IMG/VR virus record: IMGVR_UViG_3300002835_000125
Source of the DNA: an uncultured virus (IMG/VR IMGVR_UViG_3300002835_000125)
Lineage: Duplodnaviria; Heunggongvirae; Uroviricota; Caudoviricetes
Reading direction: 5' to 3' (one strand)
Length of the DNA stretch: 64,000 bases
The notes under the pieces: generated by a model
Told to the model about the DNA's origin: nothing
The model's database searches: none
The model's input: only the letters and a program-made list of their open reading frames with translations
In this document: positions 5,469 through 31,787 of the stretch, piece by piece
How positions within the stretch are numbered: position 1 is the stretch's first letter
Layout of the letters: every line of letters begins with the position of its first letter
Position numbers and translations under genes: made by a program

Positions 5469-5996
5469 ATGAAAACAAAAATTTTTGAAGCTTTAGGACA
5501 AGCTTCTATGTGTTGGTCTGAAATTCCAAACGGAGTATTTGATTCTTCTAAAGTATTAGAAGTAGGTAATGAACTACTAAAAAGTGTTTATACTACAGAA
5601 GGAGTACAAGAAATAATAAATGATTTAGATGGTTCTGAAATAGAACTTATTAATGATAAGTGGCATAGTTTCAAAGAACTTTATGAATTCAGGAAGATGT
5701 ATAATGCTGCTTTGTTCAATGAATGGGCTAATCATACTTGGGTTAGAAAAATACAAGGGGATACTGTAACAGGTATAAAATTTAGTGTCCATAAGTCATG
5801 GAAGCATTATGATGGAGAACTTTGTTTTGGTGGAGGATGGTTTATAGTTAGTGCTATGTTACCTACAGGATTGATTTCCAATCATTATGAAGCTAAAGAT
5901 TGGGATATGTTTAAGATTCCTGAAGTTGAGAAAGCTCTTTTCGAGTATGATGGACATACAGGACAAGATGTATTGAATCGTTTAAAACAATTATAA
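5469..5996 (+). CDS. phage protein, WDGH-like domain
   Basis: HSFKELYEFR...HKSWKHYDG...GGGWFIV...ISNHY...YDGHT pattern recalled from this phage family. Confidence 0.7.
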   Translation: MKTKIFEALGQASMCWSEIPNGVFDSSKVLEVGNELLKSVYTTEGVQEIINDLDGSEIELINDKWHSFKELYEFRKMYNAALFNEWANHTWVRKIQGDTVTGIKFSVHKSWKHYDGELCFGGGWFIVSAMLPTGLISNHYEAKDWDMFKIPEVEKALFEYDGHTGQDVLNRLKQL

Positions 5997-7503: not shown

Positions 7504-7890
7504 ATGTACTTAATAATTCAAGAGCAAAAACCACATGTACTCAAAGACAAATATTCTGTCTTAAAGGTTTATCTATATTTACAAATGCTGAAAAAAGGAC
7601 ATGCTCCTTTGGATAATGATATTGACATACTATGTGAATTATTCTTTGCTGGAGGTTATTGTGGTATAAAGGAAAAGAAATGGTTTTATAAAACAGTGAT
7701 AGACAAGAAGTTACGTAATTCTGAACAGAGTATAAGTAATAAACTAACCGAATTCTTTGAAAAGAAGGGATATATATTTAGGACTGATAGAAATTGTGTA
7801 GAGCTTAATTACGATTTCTTCCCAAAAGAAGGGATAGTAGGAGATGTAGAAGGAATTGGTTTATCTTTAAAGGTGGCACATGCAAGCTGA
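7504..7890 (+). CDS. hypothetical protein, possibly winged-helix DNA-binding
   Basis: First gene of the packaging operon; NSEQSISNKLTEFFEKKGYI segment. Confidence 0.7.
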   Translation: MYLIIQEQKPHVLKDKYSVLKVYLYLQMLKKGHAPLDNDIDILCELFFAGGYCGIKEKKWFYKTVIDKKLRNSEQSISNKLTEFFEKKGYIFRTDRNCVELNYDFFPKEGIVGDVEGIGLSLKVAHAS

Positions 7891-25975: not shown

Positions 25976-26010
25976 CTTTTTATTAACATTTTAAATTGTA
26001 ATTTTGTATT

Positions 26011-26265
26011 ATGATAATAACAGATAACATATTCTATTTAGATAATGGAGTAGAAAGACAAATAAATGTATTTAACGAAAGTGACCCACACTATAGATGT
26101 TTTGAATCAGATGGACAGAAACAAATAATCTTTGGAAGAAGTTCATTTGTAAAAACTGAAAATGGAGAAGTAGATTTCTTCTCTTTAAGCAAAGAAGAAA
26201 AAGATAAATTCTGTAATAACACTAATTTTATAAAAACTTATAAAAAATATGATATACATAGGTAA
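26011..26265 (+). CDS. hypothetical protein (probably leaderless)
   Basis: TAATTTTG at 25999-26006, then 4 nt, then ATG. Confidence 0.7.
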   Translation: MIITDNIFYLDNGVERQINVFNESDPHYRCFESDGQKQIIFGRSSFVKTENGEVDFFSLSKEEKDKFCNNTNFIKTYKKYDIHR

Positions 26266-26353: not shown

Positions 26354-26434
26354 ATGAAATACGTAGTAACACATACAACATGTCCACAGTGGTTTACACC
26401 GACAATATCGGGAGGGGCTTTGTATGTATACTAA
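26354..26434 (+). CDS. attenuator leader peptide 1 (MKYVVTHTTCPQWFTPTISGGALYVY)
   Basis: Between promoter and terminator; codons 6-17 encode only T,H,C,P,Q,W,F, the downstream tRNA set. Confidence 0.85.
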   Translation: MKYVVTHTTCPQWFTPTISGGALYVY

Positions 26435-26456
26435 GAAATAGCTGTGTAGTAACATC

Positions 26457-26484
26457 AACCCTCTGAGAAATCGGAGGGTTTTTT
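26457..26484 (+). terminator. attenuator terminator 1
   Basis: AACCCTCTGA-GAAA-TCGGAGGGTT-TTTT; 5' arm can pair alternatively with 26408-26426. Confidence 0.88.
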
Positions 26485-26488
26485 ATTT

Positions 26489-26582
26489 CTAGTTGTGGAC
26501 GAGAGGTTTATGTCATTAGTCTTGGAAACTAATATCTGCACACAGATGGTGTGGGTCAAGGGTTCGACTCCCTTCAACTAGA
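26489..26582 (+). tRNA. tRNA-Pro(TGG), long variable region
   Basis: CTAGTTG/CAACTAG acceptor; TTAGT-CTTGGAA-ACTAA; T arm AAGGG-TTCGACT-CCCTT. Confidence 0.85.
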
Positions 26583-26592
26583 CTTTTAATTT

Positions 26593-26665
26593 GCCTTACG
26601 AAGCTTTTATGGATGAAGTGTACTCTTGTAAAGTACGGAACTGGACTCGATTTCCAGCTAAGGCT
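26593..26665 (+). tRNA. tRNA-Thr(TGT)
   Basis: GCCTTA/TAAGGC; GTACT-CTTGTAA-AGTAC; T arm CTGGA/TCCAG. Confidence 0.85.
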
Positions 26666-26671
26666 CAAATT

Positions 26672-26744
26672 GGAGAAGAAGCTAACTTGGTAGAAGCGTT
26701 AGACTGAAAATCTAAAGGAGTTGGTCCGAAACCAACCTTCTCCG
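26672..26744 (+). tRNA. tRNA-Phe(GAA)
   Basis: GGAGAAG/CTTCTCC; TTAGA-CTGAAAA-TCTAA. Confidence 0.92.
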
Positions 26745-26746
26745 CT

Positions 26747-26821
26747 AAATACTTAATGAAACAATAAAGGAACAAAGGGGTCCGGGTAGAAATACGTTAG
26801 CGCCCATTGATTTAAGTATTT
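26747..26821 (+). ncRNA. unknown structured RNA in tRNA operon 1
   Basis: 10 bp closing stem AAATACTTAA/TTAAGTATTT; inner CAAT/ATTG, GGG/CCC, GTA-GAAA-TAC. Confidence 0.5.
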
Positions 26822-26826
26822 TTTAT

Positions 26827-26898
26827 TCCTATGTGGTGTAATGTAACATCCACGCCTTTGAAGCGTTGAGATTGGTGGTTCAAGTCCATCTATAGGAA
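26827..26898 (+). tRNA. tRNA-Gln(TTG)
   Basis: TCCTATG/TATAGGA; ACGC-CTTTGAA-GCGT; GGTGG-TTCAAGT-CCATC. Confidence 0.88.
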
Positions 26899-26900
26899 CT

Positions 26901-26975
26901 GTCTAAGTGTTCTGACTGGATTCAGATGAATGACTGTGAATTATTCAAAAAGGGTTCGAATCCCACTTAGACCCA
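26901..26975 (+). tRNA. tRNA-His(GTG)
   Basis: GTCTAAG/CTTAGAC; AATGA-CTGTGAA-TTATT; GGG-TTCGAAT-CCC. Confidence 0.85.
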
Positions 26976-26979
26976 ATAT

Positions 26980-27052
26980 ATAGGTACTCATGGCTGGCGT
27001 GATAAACAATCTCCAAAATTGTGATTTGTTGAATCGTTCTCAACTACCTATG
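26980..27052 (+). tRNA. tRNA-Trp(CCA)
   Basis: ATAGGTA/TACCTAT; ACAAT-CTCCAAA-ATTGT; divergent T loop ATCGTTC. Confidence 0.8.
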
Positions 27053-27108
27053 CTTTATAGGTCTATATACCTATATTTATAGATTATAGGTTTTAAAGGC
27101 TATAATTT

Positions 27109-27184
27109 GTCCAGATACCTAATATTGATTTTGGGATAGGTCTGCAACACCTATTAAATATCGGTTTGATTCCGATTCTGGACT
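27109..27184 (+). tRNA. tRNA-Cys(GCA)
   Basis: GTCCAGA/TCTGGAC, U73; TAGGT-CTGCAAC-ACCTA. Confidence 0.85.
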
Positions 27185-27222
27185 CTATTAAAAATAAATT
27201 TTTTTATTTGAAAAAGATTTCG

Positions 27223-27230
27223 TATATTTG
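27223..27230 (+). promoter_or_regulatory. -7 element of tRNA operon 2 promoter
   Basis: TATATTTG, canonical TAnnTTTG. Confidence 0.7.
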
Positions 27231-27255
27231 CTGTATAAATAATAAACATTCAACA

Positions 27256-27336
27256 ATGCAACTTATAAATATGATAGTGGATAACGGTATTGGAGCAAAC
27301 GAGAAGTTTGGCTTCAGGTATTCTATTGTCGTATAA
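27256..27336 (+). CDS. attenuator leader peptide 2 (MQLINMIVDNGIGANEKFGFRYSIVV)
   Basis: Codons 4-17 encode only I,N,M,V,D,G,A,E,K, the downstream tRNA set. Confidence 0.85.
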   Translation: MQLINMIVDNGIGANEKFGFRYSIVV

Positions 27337-27357
27337 TTACTTACTAACCCGATAAAG

Positions 27358-27388
27358 AATCCTGAGGCCCATCGCTTCGGGATTTTTT
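27358..27388 (+). terminator. attenuator terminator 2
   Basis: AATCCTGAGGC-CCATC-GCTTCGGGATT-TTTT; 27350-27369 can pair alternatively with 27310-27331. Confidence 0.88.
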
Positions 27389-27392
27389 GTTT

Positions 27393-27467
27393 AATCTCGT
27401 AGCAAAATGTGGCTTTGCTTCAGCCTTTTAAGCTGACTAAAAATGGGTTCGACTCCCATCGGGATTA
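27393..27467 (+). tRNA. tRNA-Lys(TTT)
   Basis: AATCTCG/CGGGATT; TCAGC-CTTTTAA-GCTGA. Confidence 0.9.
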
Positions 27468-27473
27468 CTAAAT

Positions 27474-27546
27474 GGCTCTTTAGCTCAGTGGTAGAGCTTC
27501 GTTTTTACATGACGAGAAAGCACTTGTCCGATTCAAGTAAGAGCTA
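27474..27546 (+). tRNA. tRNA-Val(TAC)
   Basis: GGCTCTT/AAGAGCT; TCGTT-TTTACAT-GACGA. Confidence 0.88.
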
Positions 27547-27547
27547 C

Positions 27548-27877
27548 ATGAAATATATATTAGGAATACTGTTCTTATTAATTATAGGAACAGCAACAAA
27601 AACAGGAATTGCAAGTTATTATCATAACAAGTTTCAAGGAAGGAAAACTGCTAGTGGTGAATTATATGATAAACATAAATTAACAGCAGCTTCTAATCAA
27701 TATAAACTTGGTGATAGTGTAAGAGTAACAAATACTAAGAATGGTAAAAGTGTAAATGTTACAGTAAATGACCGTATGGCTAATAATGGAAGACTAATTG
27801 ATTTAAGTAGAAGTGCTGCTGATAGTCTTGGTTTTATTAAGGATGGTTTAGTTGTAGTTAAAGTTAGTATATTATAA
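27548..27877 (+). CDS. rlpA: RlpA-family lytic transglycosylase (DPBB domain) with hydrophobic N-terminus
   Basis: GIASYY...GRKTASGE.YD...LTAA...VRVTN..NGKSV.V.VNDR...RLIDLSRSAA; start revised to 27548 because the track N-terminus overlaps two tRNAs. Confidence 0.92.
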   Translation: MKYILGILFLLIIGTATKTGIASYYHNKFQGRKTASGELYDKHKLTAASNQYKLGDSVRVTNTKNGKSVNVTVNDRMANNGRLIDLSRSAADSLGFIKDGLVVVKVSIL

Positions 27878-27882
27878 ATATC

Positions 27883-27956
27883 TGTTTTGTAGCTCAGTGG
27901 CCTAGAGCGTGAAGCTGTTAACTTCAGGGTCGTGGGTTCGAATCCCATCAGGACAG
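27883..27956 (+). tRNA. tRNA-Asn(GTT)
   Basis: TGTTTTG/CAGGACA; TGAAG-CTGTTAA-CTTCA. Confidence 0.93.
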
Positions 27957-27961
27957 CATAT

Positions 27962-28046
27962 TGTGGGATGGTGTAATTGGTAACACGCAAGGCTCATAAC
28001 CTTGAGACAGAAAATGCTAGCAAGGGTTCGAATCCCTTTCCCGCAA
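27962..28046 (+). tRNA. tRNA-Met(CAT), initiator-like acceptor, long variable loop
   Basis: TGTGGGA/TCCCGCA; CAAGG-CTCATAA-CCTTG; 17 nt variable region. Confidence 0.85.
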
Positions 28047-28051
28047 CACAA

Positions 28052-28124
28052 GCAGTATAGGCAGATTGGCTTATGCACCTCACTTCCAATGAGGACATGG
28101 TGGGTTCGATTCCTACATGCTGCA
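28052..28124 (+). tRNA. tRNA-Gly(TCC)
   Basis: GCAGTAT/ATGCTGC; CCTCA-CTTCCAA-TGAGG. Confidence 0.9.
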
Positions 28125-28171
28125 CAAAAATTATATTATGAAAAATTCTTTAAAAGAAGGTGAAGAGATAT

Positions 28172-28244
28172 ACTCTCATCTTCTAGTTGGTCAGGATAAC
28201 ACACTTTCAATGTGTTGACACGGGTTCAAGCCCCGTTGGGAGTG
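28172..28244 (+). tRNA. tRNA-Glu(TTC)
   Basis: ACTCTCA/TGGGAGT; ACACA-CTTTCAA-TGTGT. Confidence 0.9.
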
Positions 28245-28254
28245 CTTTAAAAAT

Positions 28255-28328
28255 GGTAGATGGGTCTGCTGGATGAAGATGTCGGTCTGTCGAACCGAAG
28301 ATGATGGGTTTGAATCCCATATCTACCG
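28255..28328 (+). tRNA. tRNA-Asp(GTC)
   Basis: GGTAGAT/ATCTACC, G73; TCGGT-CTGTCGA-ACCGA. Confidence 0.88.
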
Positions 28329-28333
28329 CATTA

Positions 28334-28408
28334 GGACTTGTAGCCAAGTTGGTAAAGGCCCTTGACTCATAATCAAGAGATGCAATGGTTCGAGACCATT
28401 CAAGTCCA
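28334..28408 (+). tRNA. tRNA with CAT anticodon, probably Ile2 (lysidine, reads AUA)
   Basis: GGACTTG/CAAGTCC; CTTGA-CTCATAA-TCAAG resembles bacterial Ile2; leader 2 has two ATA codons. Confidence 0.8.
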
Positions 28409-28413
28409 CATAT

Positions 28414-28485
28414 AGGAATATAGTAGAAGGGTTATCACAATTGACTGATACTCAATTAATATAGGTTCGAATCCTATTGTTCCTA
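28414..28485 (+). tRNA. tRNA-Ile(GAT)
   Basis: AGGAATA/TGTTCCT; ATTGA-CTGATAC-TCAAT. Confidence 0.9.
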
Positions 28486-28490
28486 CATTT

Positions 28491-28563
28491 GGGGATAAAG
28501 CTCTAGCGGATGAGCATCTGCCTTGCACGTAGAAGGTTACGATTTCGAGTGTCGTTATCTCCA
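28491..28563 (+). tRNA. tRNA-Ala(TGC)
   Basis: GGGGATA/TATCTCC with G3-U70; TCTGC-CTTGCAC-GTAGA. Confidence 0.9.
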
Positions 28564-28585
28564 CATAGGGGTTCGGAAAATAATT

Positions 28586-28623
28586 AGCTACATCTCTTTA
28601 TTAATAAGGGTTGTAGCTTTTTT
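28586..28623 (+). terminator. terminator ending tRNA operon 2
   Basis: AGCTACA...TGTAGCT stem plus T tract. Confidence 0.75.
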
Positions 28624-28664
28624 ATTGTCTCAAATATTGTAATAATTTGCGACATAATTTATTT

Positions 28665-28695
28665 TTTGTCAGGTTATAACCTTTCTTTATCTTTG
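28665..28695 (+). promoter_or_regulatory. Bacteroidota sigma-A type promoter
   Basis: TTTG-N19-TATCTTTG. Confidence 0.75.
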
Positions 28696-28699
28696 TTTT

Positions 28700-28867
28700 A
28701 TGAATTGGCATATACTACCTGTAAATGATATAGAATATCATGAAGAATCTACCACTTGTAAGTGTGAACCACAAGTAGAATTTATAGAAGGAGATATGCT
28801 AATTATACAAAACTCTTTTGATGGTAGAGAAGGAGTTGAATGGGTAAATGAAATTTTAAATAAATAA
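28700..28867 (+). CDS. small His/Cys-containing phage protein (55 aa; not in track)
   Basis: MNWHILPVNDIEYHEESTTCKCEPQVEFIEGDMLIIHNSFDGREGVEWVNEILNK; has its own promoter. Confidence 0.8.
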   Translation: MNWHILPVNDIEYHEESTTCKCEPQVEFIEGDMLIIQNSFDGREGVEWVNEILNK

Positions 28868-28899
28868 TTTGGAAAATTCAAAATAATTTCGTATATTTG
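28868..28899 (+). promoter_or_regulatory. promoter of tRNA operon 3
   Basis: TTTG-N20-TATATTTG, perfect consensus. Confidence 0.85.
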
Positions 28900-28903
28900 C
28901 TTT

Positions 28904-28972
28904 ATGAAAACATTATCACTATATAGTTCCTCAAGTTATCTCTTATTAAGAGACAGGGATTGTATTGTGTAA
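28904..28972 (+). CDS. attenuator leader peptide 3 (MKTLSLYSSSSYLLLRDRDCIV)
   Basis: Codons 4-15 encode only L,S,Y, the downstream tRNA set. Confidence 0.88.
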   Translation: MKTLSLYSSSSYLLLRDRDCIV

Positions 28973-29000
28973 ATAGCTATAAGCTTTTAGCTCCCCTAAC

Positions 29001-29032
29001 AATCCCTTGTCTTTCCAGATGAGGGATTTTTT
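29001..29032 (+). terminator. attenuator terminator 3
   Basis: AATCCCTTGTCT-TTCC-AGATGAGGGATT-TTTT; 28999-29012 can pair alternatively with 28951-28963. Confidence 0.88.
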
Positions 29033-29035
29033 ATT

Positions 29036-29108
29036 GGCTCTATGACGTAATCGGCAACCGTCTTGGCTTTAGACCCCAAGTTTTCCAGTTCGAATCTGGA
29101 TAGAGCTA
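29036..29108 (+). tRNA. tRNA-Leu(TAG) lacking a long variable arm
   Basis: GGCTCTA/TAGAGCT, A73; CTTGG-CTTTAGACC-CCAAG centred on TAG; TCCAG-TTCGAAT-CTGGA. Confidence 0.8.
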
Positions 29109-29163
29109 CAAATTAGCAGCCCTCTATGGATAATTCTATTGACGAATAGAATATGGGCAAAAT

Positions 29164-29246
29164 ATTCCTGTGGTGAAATGGTGAGACACGGCAGACTTAA
29201 AATCTGCTACGGAGAAACGTTGCTGGTTCGAATCCAGTCAGGAATA
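29164..29246 (+). tRNA. tRNA-Leu(TAA)
   Basis: ATTCCTG/CAGGAAT; GCAGA-CTTAAAA-TCTGC; variable arm present. Confidence 0.93.
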
Positions 29247-29249
29247 CTT

Positions 29250-29334
29250 AGCAGAATGTCAGAGTGGTTTATTGTGATAGTCTTGAAAACTATTGGGTGT
29301 AAAAGCTCCTTGGGTTCGAATCCCAATTTTGCTG
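29250..29334 (+). tRNA. tRNA-Ser(TGA)
   Basis: AGCAGAA/TTTTGCT, G73; ATAGT-CTTGAAA-ACTAT. Confidence 0.9.
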
Positions 29335-29338
29335 CAAT

Positions 29339-29427
29339 AGAAGATTGTGTGAGTGGCTTAAACAACCAGTTTGCTAAACTGGCGAGGGATTAAAACACCT
29401 CCATTGGTTCAAATCCAATATCTTCTG
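29339..29427 (+). tRNA. tRNA-Ser(GCT)
   Basis: AGAAGAT/ATCTTCT, G73; CCAGT-TTGCTAA-ACTGG. Confidence 0.92.
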
Positions 29428-29432
29428 CATAT

Positions 29433-29525
29433 TGTGTTGTAACGGCAGTAGACTGTAAATCTACTCTGCATAACAAATTGTCGTACTGGTCTCGCAGTAA
29501 GAAGGTTCGAATCCTTTCAACACAA
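29433..29525 (+). tRNA. tRNA-Tyr(GTA), non-canonical (no D-arm in normal position, 36 nt variable region)
   Basis: TGTGTTG/CAACACA, A73; GTAGA-CTGTAAA-TCTAC; GAAGG-TTCGAAT-CCTTT; only 8 nt between acceptor and anticodon arms. Confidence 0.75.
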
Positions 29526-29551
29526 CATTAACTTATTATTAACTATAGACA

Positions 29552-29583
29552 TTTGACTATATAAAGTAAATAGTCTATTTTTG
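29552..29583 (+). promoter_or_regulatory. promoter inside an imperfect palindrome
   Basis: TTTG-N20-TATTTTTG; inverted repeat ATAGAC...GTCTAT spans it. Confidence 0.75.
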
Positions 29584-29587
29584 TATT

Positions 29588-29725
29588 GTACAAATTCCCA
29601 ACCGTCATAGGAGATTTGTATTTAATTAACAATAACTATATATTCGATTGATGTAACTTTGTTCTTAGGAACGCAACTTGACGGTTGGGACCCCTTGTAC
29701 TTAATTGTATGAGGGGATTTTTTTT
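29588..29725 (+). ncRNA. putative small RNA or structured leader with terminator
   Basis: Perfect 12 bp stem 29596-29607/29679-29690; terminator CCCCTTGTAC/GTATGAGGGG plus T tract. Confidence 0.6.
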
Positions 29726-31645: not shown

Positions 31646-31695
31646 GAAATGTCGCAAAAAAGGCGTATATTGTTATGATATGCGCTTTTTTATTT

Positions 31696-31767
31696 GGCTC
31701 CTTAGTTAAATGGATATAACCGCAGAATTCTAATCTGCATTTGGGAGTTCGATTCTCTCAGGGGCTA
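31696..31767 (+). tRNA. tRNA-Arg(TCT)
   Basis: GGCTCCT/AGGGGCT; GCAGA-ATTCTAA-TCTGC; GGGAG-TTCGATT-CTCTC. Confidence 0.9.
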
Positions 31768-31787
31768 CGAAATCTTAAAAATAAATT

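Follow-up and report, generated by a model that had tools for sequence, protein, structure and literature searches.

Leader-peptide attenuation is a textbook control of amino-acid synthesis. The enterobacterial multivalent attenuators extend it to several amino acids at once: the thr leader carries Thr and Ile codons, and the ilv leaders carry Ile, Leu and Val codons. In E. coli the phenylalanyl-tRNA synthetase operon pheST possesses an attenuator with the pheM leader, while the T-box leaders of Gram-positive bacteria bind uncharged transfer RNA (tRNA) directly, without a ribosome. Here we describe a leader in front of tRNA genes of a lake phage. It lies at 28868-29035 of a stretch of 64,000 nucleotides (nt), in the following called the window, which belongs to the uncultured virus record IMGVR_UViG_3300002835_000125, and it comprises a promoter, a short open reading frame (ORF) rich in Leu, Ser and Tyr codons, a set of alternative hairpins and an intrinsic terminator. 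We refer to such an arrangement together with the tRNA block behind it as a unit; the window harbours three of them, and the one studied here is unit 3. Most probably, unit 3 is a ribosome-mediated (trp-type) transcription attenuator gating a block of Leu, Leu, Ser, Ser and (Tyr-like) tRNA genes. An earlier note, made from the sequence alone, had proposed a leader-peptide attenuator for Leu, Ser and Tyr in front of matching tRNAs, and every computational test that we ran, on the composition, on the switch, on the sister units and in other phages, supports this proposal.

Comparing unit 3 with the thr and ilv leaders reveals the same short ORF with codons for more than one amino acid, the same pairings 1:2, 2:3 and 3:4, a terminator before the first gene and a stalled ribosome which favours the antiterminator. 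While the thr and ilv leaders regulate biosynthetic enzymes, the regulated genes are tRNAs here; moreover, up to nine amino acids are listed in one leader, each once to a few times, and the messenger RNA, from a phage, is probably leaderless. The pheST attenuator with pheM is similar in that leader-peptide attenuation acts on a gene of the translation apparatus and responds to charged tRNA, but it controls a synthetase, deals with a single amino acid and is cellular, whereas the present case is viral. T-box leaders also tie read-through to the state of a specific tRNA via the choice between terminator and antiterminator; they differ by the direct binding of uncharged tRNA, and unit 3 shows no T-box match. 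In mycobacteria leaderless polycysteine short ORFs act as Cys-responsive attenuators (bioRxiv 10.1101/834739). As far as the available part of that source describes them, they resemble unit 3 as leaderless short ORFs whose codon content senses an amino acid and which control downstream genes, and they differ by being specific for one amino acid, by controlling cellular operons and by belonging to another phylum. For Flavobacterium psychrophilum the accessible part of PMC9723704 reports leader-peptide attenuation upstream of amino-acid operons; the likely host phylum, the promoter type and the kind of control are alike, the targets being amino-acid pathways and not tRNAs. An attenuator-like leader at pheV of E. 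coli was considered as well and not borne out: in MG1655 the upstream region contains a promoter close to the tRNA, a few bases away, and nothing more, and a pheV leader of 3-4 nt is stated in PMC7049720. In the literature searched, with subscription journals and supplements outside its scope, no description of leader-peptide control of tRNA genes was found. New here are the tRNA genes as target, by which sensed molecule and product coincide, one leader which lists a whole block, and the phage setting.

The leader ORF and its codons 4-15 are exactly those listed in the earlier note, both by direct reading and in the ORF listing; start and stop codon lie within the 5' leader (Table 1). Codons 4-15 form the regulatory run and specify nothing but Leu, Ser and Tyr, which together make up 19.4% of the residues in the 82 long ORFs of the genome. 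For comparison we took every ATG ORF of 15-45 codons from the two strands of the 155,874-bp genome, 931 in total. A Leu/Ser/Tyr run of 12 is found in one of them, the unit-3 leader, and the next best run has 7. In log-odds scores the leader reaches 20.1 bits against its own block, although Tyr was not counted in that block, and 2.2 and 1.4 bits against the other two blocks. Sister unit 1 precedes tRNAs for Pro, Thr, Phe, Gln, His, Trp and Cys, and its run of 12 codons consists of exactly the 7 amino acids of this block (next best in the genome 7). Sister unit 2 precedes tRNAs for Lys, Val, Asn, Met, Gly, Glu, Asp, Met/Ile, Ile and Ala, and its 14-codon run comprises exactly the 9 amino acids of its block (next best 10). 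The amino acid sets of the three units are disjoint, and all amino acids of each block are present in its own leader run. The promoter of unit 2 is a 76% copy of the unit-3 promoter; its terminator lies at 27351-27391 in the longer fold and has 11-nt arms if the T-run is excluded from the fold.

Folding of unit 3 predicts three helices between four segments. Helix 1:2 has -16.1 kcal/mol (z -3.13, 2 of 200 shuffles as good), helix 2:3 has -21.6 kcal/mol (z -4.07, 1 of 200), and helix 3:4, which is followed by the T-run, has -14.6 kcal/mol (z -4.47, 0 of 200). They are mutually exclusive, i.e. the antiterminator 2:3 excludes the intrinsic terminator 3:4 between leader ORF and first gene, and 1:2 excludes the antiterminator. 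Helix 3:4 is also recovered by a simple terminator scan, and for the fold of the whole leader z is -4.16, none of 200 shuffles being as good. The single helix named in the earlier note, 28951-28963 with 28999-29012 and one bulged base, is confirmed by folding; helices 1:2 and 3:4 come in addition to it.

A ribosome was imitated by a mask of 29 nt forced to be unpaired, reaching 15 nt upstream and 13 nt downstream of the first A-site base, and this mask was moved codon by codon. In the minimum free energy (MFE) structure of the full-length leader the antiterminator is present with A-site codons 3-12, and the terminator at codon 2, at codons 13-23 and in free RNA. When the transcript is cut before segment 4, our co-transcriptional model, 2:3 is formed at codons 2-12, partially at codons 13-14 and is absent from codon 15 on. 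In silico, segment 2 becomes available when the ribosome stalls in the run and is masked when the ribosome stands close to the stop codon. Units 1 and 2 act like unit 3 in the co-transcriptional model; in the full-length model unit 2 switches and unit 1 does not. The mask analysis was run over 12 units, including units of other phages described below, ten of which were evaluable (phi17:2 B and Calle 2 were left out, an earlier T-run having been picked there). In the co-transcriptional model all ten change over from antiterminator to terminator close to where their regulatory run ends.

Table 1. Positions in the window of the elements of unit 3, the tRNA genes behind it and the two sister units.
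Feature	Position	Strand	Basis and remarks
-33 element TTTG, Bacteroidota-type promoter	28868..28871	+	pattern match
-7 box TAnnTTTG	28892..28899	+	pattern match; transcription start inferred
Leader ORF, 22 codons plus stop, probably leaderless	28904..28972	+	ORF listing
Regulatory run, codons 4-15 (5 Leu, 5 Ser, 2 Tyr)	28913..28948	+	run count; block log-odds
Segment 1, inside the regulatory run	28917..28931	+	folding; pairs with segment 2
Segment 2	28950..28969	+	folding; pairs with segment 1 (via 28955-28969) or with segment 3 (via 28950-28963)
Segment 3, 3' arm of the antiterminator	28999..29013	+	folding; overlaps the 5' arm of the terminator (29001-29012)
Segment 4 (29017-29028) and T-run, intrinsic terminator (29001-29028 plus T-run)	29017..29035	+	folding, terminator scan; ends 1-3 nt short of the first tRNA
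tRNA-Leu(TAG)	29036..29109	+	ARAGORN; Rfam 44.8 bits; starts 1-3 nt past the T-run
tRNA-Leu(TAA)	29164..29247	+	ARAGORN, Rfam
tRNA-Ser(TGA)	29250..29335	+	ARAGORN, Rfam
tRNA-Ser(GCT)	29339..29428	+	ARAGORN, Rfam
Tyr(GTA)-like candidate, non-canonical	~29433..29527	+	reading by eye; fold z -1.75; unconfirmed
Sister unit 1: 26-codon leader (26354-26434), terminator (26457-26480)	26354..26488	+	ORF listing, folding
Sister unit 2: promoter copy, 26-codon leader (27256-27336), terminator	27207..27392	+	ORF listing, folding

The same design could be found in Cellulophaga phages phi17:2, phi10:1 and Calle_1, in Tenacibaculum phage Gundel_1 and in Leptolyngbya phage Lbo-JY46, which together with the present phage gives 15 units in six phages. 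These units share promoter, short ORF, switch, T-run, tRNA block and a leader listing the amino acids of that block; what varies is the distribution of the tRNAs over the blocks and, in line with it, the content of the leaders. Phi17:2 has three units, and the 11 codons of its first leader specify exactly the six amino acids of a block of Pro, Glu, Gln, His, Leu, Leu and Arg tRNAs; leaders A and C are identical in Cellulophaga phage phi4:1. In the one unit of phi10:1 a run of 10 codons covers the five amino acids of a Tyr, Trp, Phe, Ser, Cys block. The leaders of the three units of Calle_1 and of the two of Gundel_1 fit their own blocks, and Lbo-JY46 has three units, two of which are described below. 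For the 15 units we carried out an automatic test with ORFs taken by coordinate, blocks from ARAGORN and background frequencies from the genome of the present phage. In the five phages with at least two units, the own block gave the top log-odds score for 14 out of 14 leaders with relaxed ARAGORN settings. With default settings it was 13 out of 14, the miss being the Leu unit of Lbo-JY46, whose block then reads only Leu, Leu. Own-block scores range from 6.4 to 29.2 bits over the 15 units, as opposed to 2.1-11.7 bits for the best of the five other frames of the same DNA.

In the records of these phages the leaders are either unannotated or annotated as hypothetical proteins. Two of the annotations in phi17:2 (locus L025) look like mis-annotations by their position: gp077 (5762-5881) is the leader of unit B extended upstream through the promoter, and the hypothetical protein gp078 (7703-7804) overlaps a tRNA-Ser(TGA) which ARAGORN places at 7698.

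The units of Lbo-JY46 allow a closer comparison. Its tRNA region shows 72.9% identity to that of the present phage over the aligned tRNA pieces, and the promoter letters are shared. A Tyr/Ser/Leu-rich leader precedes Leu(TAG), Leu(TAA) and Ser(TGA) in Lbo-JY46 and is the closest relative of unit 3; it has Tyr codons, and no Tyr tRNA was detected in its block. Folding in Lbo-JY46 covered this Leu/Ser unit. The free RNA forms 1:2 and 3:4 (z -5.52), and the RNA past a stalled ribosome, cut before segment 4, forms 2:3 (z -4.12). Segments 2, 3 and 4 differ in their letters from those of unit 3 and yet fold alike; therefore the three pairings have been kept by compensatory change. The Pro-block leader of Lbo-JY46 lists Thr, Arg, Gln, His, Phe, Trp and Pro, and exactly those seven tRNAs follow. 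Leader and block covary here: Arg in this leader goes with a tRNA-Arg(ACG) in its block, and Cys goes with a tRNA-Cys in unit 1 of the present phage.

The promoter of unit 3 had been called perfect in the earlier note. This is true for the Bacteroidota consensus, to which TTTG, a gap of 20 nt and TAnnTTTG are a full match (a consensus with TTTG at -33 is quoted in the accessible part of PMC7366714), and it is not true for the sigma-70 consensus, of which 9 out of 12 positions are matched. In the transcriptome of F. psychrophilum the -7 box sits at -12 to -5, and 5.5% of the messenger RNAs are leaderless (both from the available part of PMC9723704). With the box at 28892-28899 this position places +1 at 28904, the A of the ATG. 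The claim of a leaderless leader with its ATG at +1 is thus upheld as to the distance of 4 nt between -7 box and ATG, while the start itself is supported by prediction; we regard 28904 as a reasonable one. A box, 4 nt and an ATG occur six times in the window against 1.65 expected (one of 100 shuffles gets to six), and four of these six cases fall on ORF starts, at 1739, 26011, 28700 and 28904. The first three (1727-1741, 25999-26013, 28688-28702) are starts of protein-coding ORFs. Leaderless transcripts may hence be common in this phage. Among the 15 units, eight have the ATG exactly 4 nt past a -7-like box, which is perfect in four cases and has one mismatch in the other four. A pattern made of the -7 box, 4 nt of spacing and the nine opening bases of the leader was also searched for in viral contigs. 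At least 122 stretches matched, and in none of the 80 loci taken was a plus-strand tRNA present within 400 nt; this pattern is too unspecific.

The mechanism which we propose is the following. Transcription would start at or beside the A of the leader AUG, and a ribosome would load on the 5' end and translate behind the RNA polymerase. As long as the cognate Leu, Ser and Tyr aminoacyl-tRNAs are ample, the ribosome would reach the stop codon and cover segment 2, so that the terminator 3:4 forms and transcription ends before the first tRNA. If any cognate tRNA is scarce, the ribosome would stall within codons 3-12 and hold segment 1, leaving segment 2 free to pair with segment 3, and the polymerase would read through into the tRNAs. 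Without translation 1:2 would form first and the terminator next, which makes off the default state. In this way a leader would integrate all amino acids of its block in the manner of an OR gate. Since what is sensed is the product tRNA itself, the supply from each block would limit itself in a loop.

Direct results of this work are the layout of the sequence, its statistics, the competing folds and a conserved design; the transcription start, the translation of the leader, the stalling and the termination in the cell are all inferred. Several observations weigh against an attenuator of this kind. The leader codons are cognate to the regulated genes at the level of amino acids, and the further claim of a match at the isoacceptor level did not hold up: by standard wobble rules 10 of the 12 codons of unit 3 are cognate, where 8.7 are expected from the codon usage of the phage (P=0.32). 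In the same test unit 1 has 12 of 12 (P=0.011) and unit 2 has 13 of 14 (P=0.36). TCC and CTC in the unit-3 run require decoding of C by uridine 34 (U34). The phage set has U34 in each four-codon box, and on the assumption of such decoding both may be readable. Each amino acid is represented by only 2-5 codons in the run, on which any sensitivity to a single tRNA would depend. Out of the five tRNAs which had been named as partners of the run, Leu(TAG), Leu(TAA), Ser(TGA) and Ser(GCT) were found by ARAGORN as well as Rfam, and Tyr(GTA) by neither of them, as there was no call at ~29433-29527 with ARAGORN (default or relaxed) or Rfam. Regarding the switch, the MFE structure of the free unit-3 transcript cut before segment 4 favours the antiterminator 2:3, and termination without translation therefore depends on 1:2 forming first (kinetic trapping). 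Of the 10 evaluable units, 5 (including unit 1) keep the terminator at every ribosome position when modelled thermodynamically at full length; these 5 switch in the co-transcriptional model only. As to the host, the Bacteroidota-type promoter is also present in a phage recorded on a cyanobacterium (Lbo-JY46).

The lack of a significant match between codons and isoacceptors in unit 3 would suit an attenuator that is real and ribosome-dependent but reports general translation capacity (ribosomes, elongation factors, timing of the infection), its codons simply reflecting phage usage; also, any slowdown of elongation leads to read-through in the folding model. We consider this explanation unlikely. 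A general sensor does not need an amino acid content that is matched to the tRNA block, yet in 14 of 14 leaders this content goes with the block, the three leaders of one genome differ in it, and the exchange of Cys and Arg between homologous units follows their tRNA content.

It is still less probable that the hairpins are no more than the terminator of the upstream gene together with processing signals of the tRNA precursor, so that the ORF is untranslated and its composition a by-product of the nucleotide bias of the hairpins. Other frames of the unit-3 DNA do score up to 10.5 bits, and part of the signal is therefore nucleotide composition, but the score in frame is 20.1 bits even without Tyr. 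The ATG is placed 4 nt past the -7 box and the stop just past segment 2, and the same layout is repeated in 15 units whose hairpin sequences are unrelated. Besides, a plain terminator has no need of an antiterminator.

The fact that the leader codons are cognate to the downstream tRNAs could in principle also reflect a direct, T-box-like contact in which the codon string pairs with the anticodons and no ribosome takes part. This is very improbable, as twelve in-frame codons between start and stop suit translation and not a single specifier loop, and the covariance models of Rfam gave neither a T-box nor any other match in 28868-29035 at E up to 1, by which a T-box leader at this place is rejected. 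That an unremarkable short ORF happens to lie beside a terminator is refuted statistically and practically negligible, given one such run among 931 ORFs, three cases in one genome and 15 units in six phages.

If the attenuator reading of unit 3 is correct, it would explain how large tRNA sets of phages are regulated, namely via the speed of decoding codon by codon and by topping up what is missing, and it would also account for the arrangement of the tRNAs in blocks. It would tie phage tRNAs to the question of tRNA-targeting host defences and offer a computational rule, by which a leader predicts the content of its block including tRNAs missed by the finders (here Trp and Tyr-like). Cultured Cellulophaga phage-host pairs carry the same design and allow a direct test. 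More tentatively, we suggest as a possibility that the tRNA clusters of phages in this lineage consist of self-regulating cassettes with a translated, block-listing leader, turned on only when the host pool of one of the listed tRNAs fails, which would serve as an inducible counter-defence and as a tRNA homeostat and would be mobile between unrelated phages. Host shut-off, codon mismatch and anti-phage anticodon nucleases of the host could be sources of such a failure.

The virus record of 155,874 bp is complete according to CheckV, and every long ORF of the window is on the plus strand. The terminase and the portal match PHROG families. With about 24% identity the terminase resembles its counterparts in crAss-like phages and in Flavobacterium phage FpV4, and it has 73 record matches, each below 60% identity. 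The assignment to a Bacteroidota host rests on the promoter type and on this distant protein kinship. Lbo-JY46 is not among the 73 terminase matches, and therefore the module may have moved between unrelated phages: either the Lbo-JY46 module (locus L153, 1800-6800) is mobile, or the promoter type is not host-specific. Using the 381-aa (amino acid) protein, the terminase, the 55-aa protein or the RlpA-like protein as query gave no loci related to this phage. The exonuclease query yielded 21 related loci with 32-37% identity; none of these 21 has a tRNA cluster, and the sole tRNA there is one tRNA-Met (locus L006). Unit 3 is present letter for letter on contigs of two other lake/freshwater runs (X5 and X8), which thus offer no natural variation and from which it follows only that the sequence is not an assembly artefact. 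A search for RNA runs containing the stretch gave none.

The tRNA cluster extends on the plus strand over 26.3-29.6 kb of the window. With default settings ARAGORN finds 19 tRNAs in the window, 18 in the cluster and a tRNA-Arg(TCT) at 31696-31768, and 18 of the 19 are above the gathering score of the Rfam tRNA model. Three further tRNAs appear under relaxed settings, namely Thr(TGT) (26593-26666), His(GTG) (26901-26974) and, weakly, Trp(CCA) (26976-27053). All three are missed at default thresholds and predicted by the unit-1 leader. In a similar way the two Tyr codons of the unit-3 leader predict that the Tyr(GTA)-like candidate is real. An acceptor stem of 7 bp, a T arm and an anticodon loop of canonical form are present in this candidate; a D arm is not, and the variable region comprises about 35 nt.

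Altogether the tRNA set (26489-29527 and 31696-31768) serves all 20 amino acids, each codon box having about one tRNA. U34 is found in every four-codon box, and the set is a near-minimal decoding set, in which Arg(TCT) is the sole Arg tRNA seen. Within the second tRNA block, between tRNA-Val and tRNA-Asn, there is an ORF for an RlpA-like lipoprotein of 109 aa (27548-27877; phrog_7930, E 1.7e-24). Upstream of Arg(TCT), at 31650-31695, there is a mini-ORF of 9 codons, two of them neighbouring Arg codons; it extends into the 5' arm of a terminator which abuts the tRNA at 31696. It may represent a fourth, simpler unit, for which the case is weak because a ribosome at the stop of the mini-ORF would cover the hairpin as well. 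Behind the cluster, at 29552-29725, a match to the Bacteroidota-type promoter (29552-29583) is followed by a long hairpin (~29598-29689) and a strong terminator (29691-29716) with T-run. There is no ORF and no Rfam match in this region, which is possibly a gene for a small RNA of about 135 nt. Further downstream, from 35230 to 63998, the window contains a series of very large plus-strand ORFs (1507, 1355, 929, 1833 and more than 2872 aa) in the fashion of crAss-like phages.

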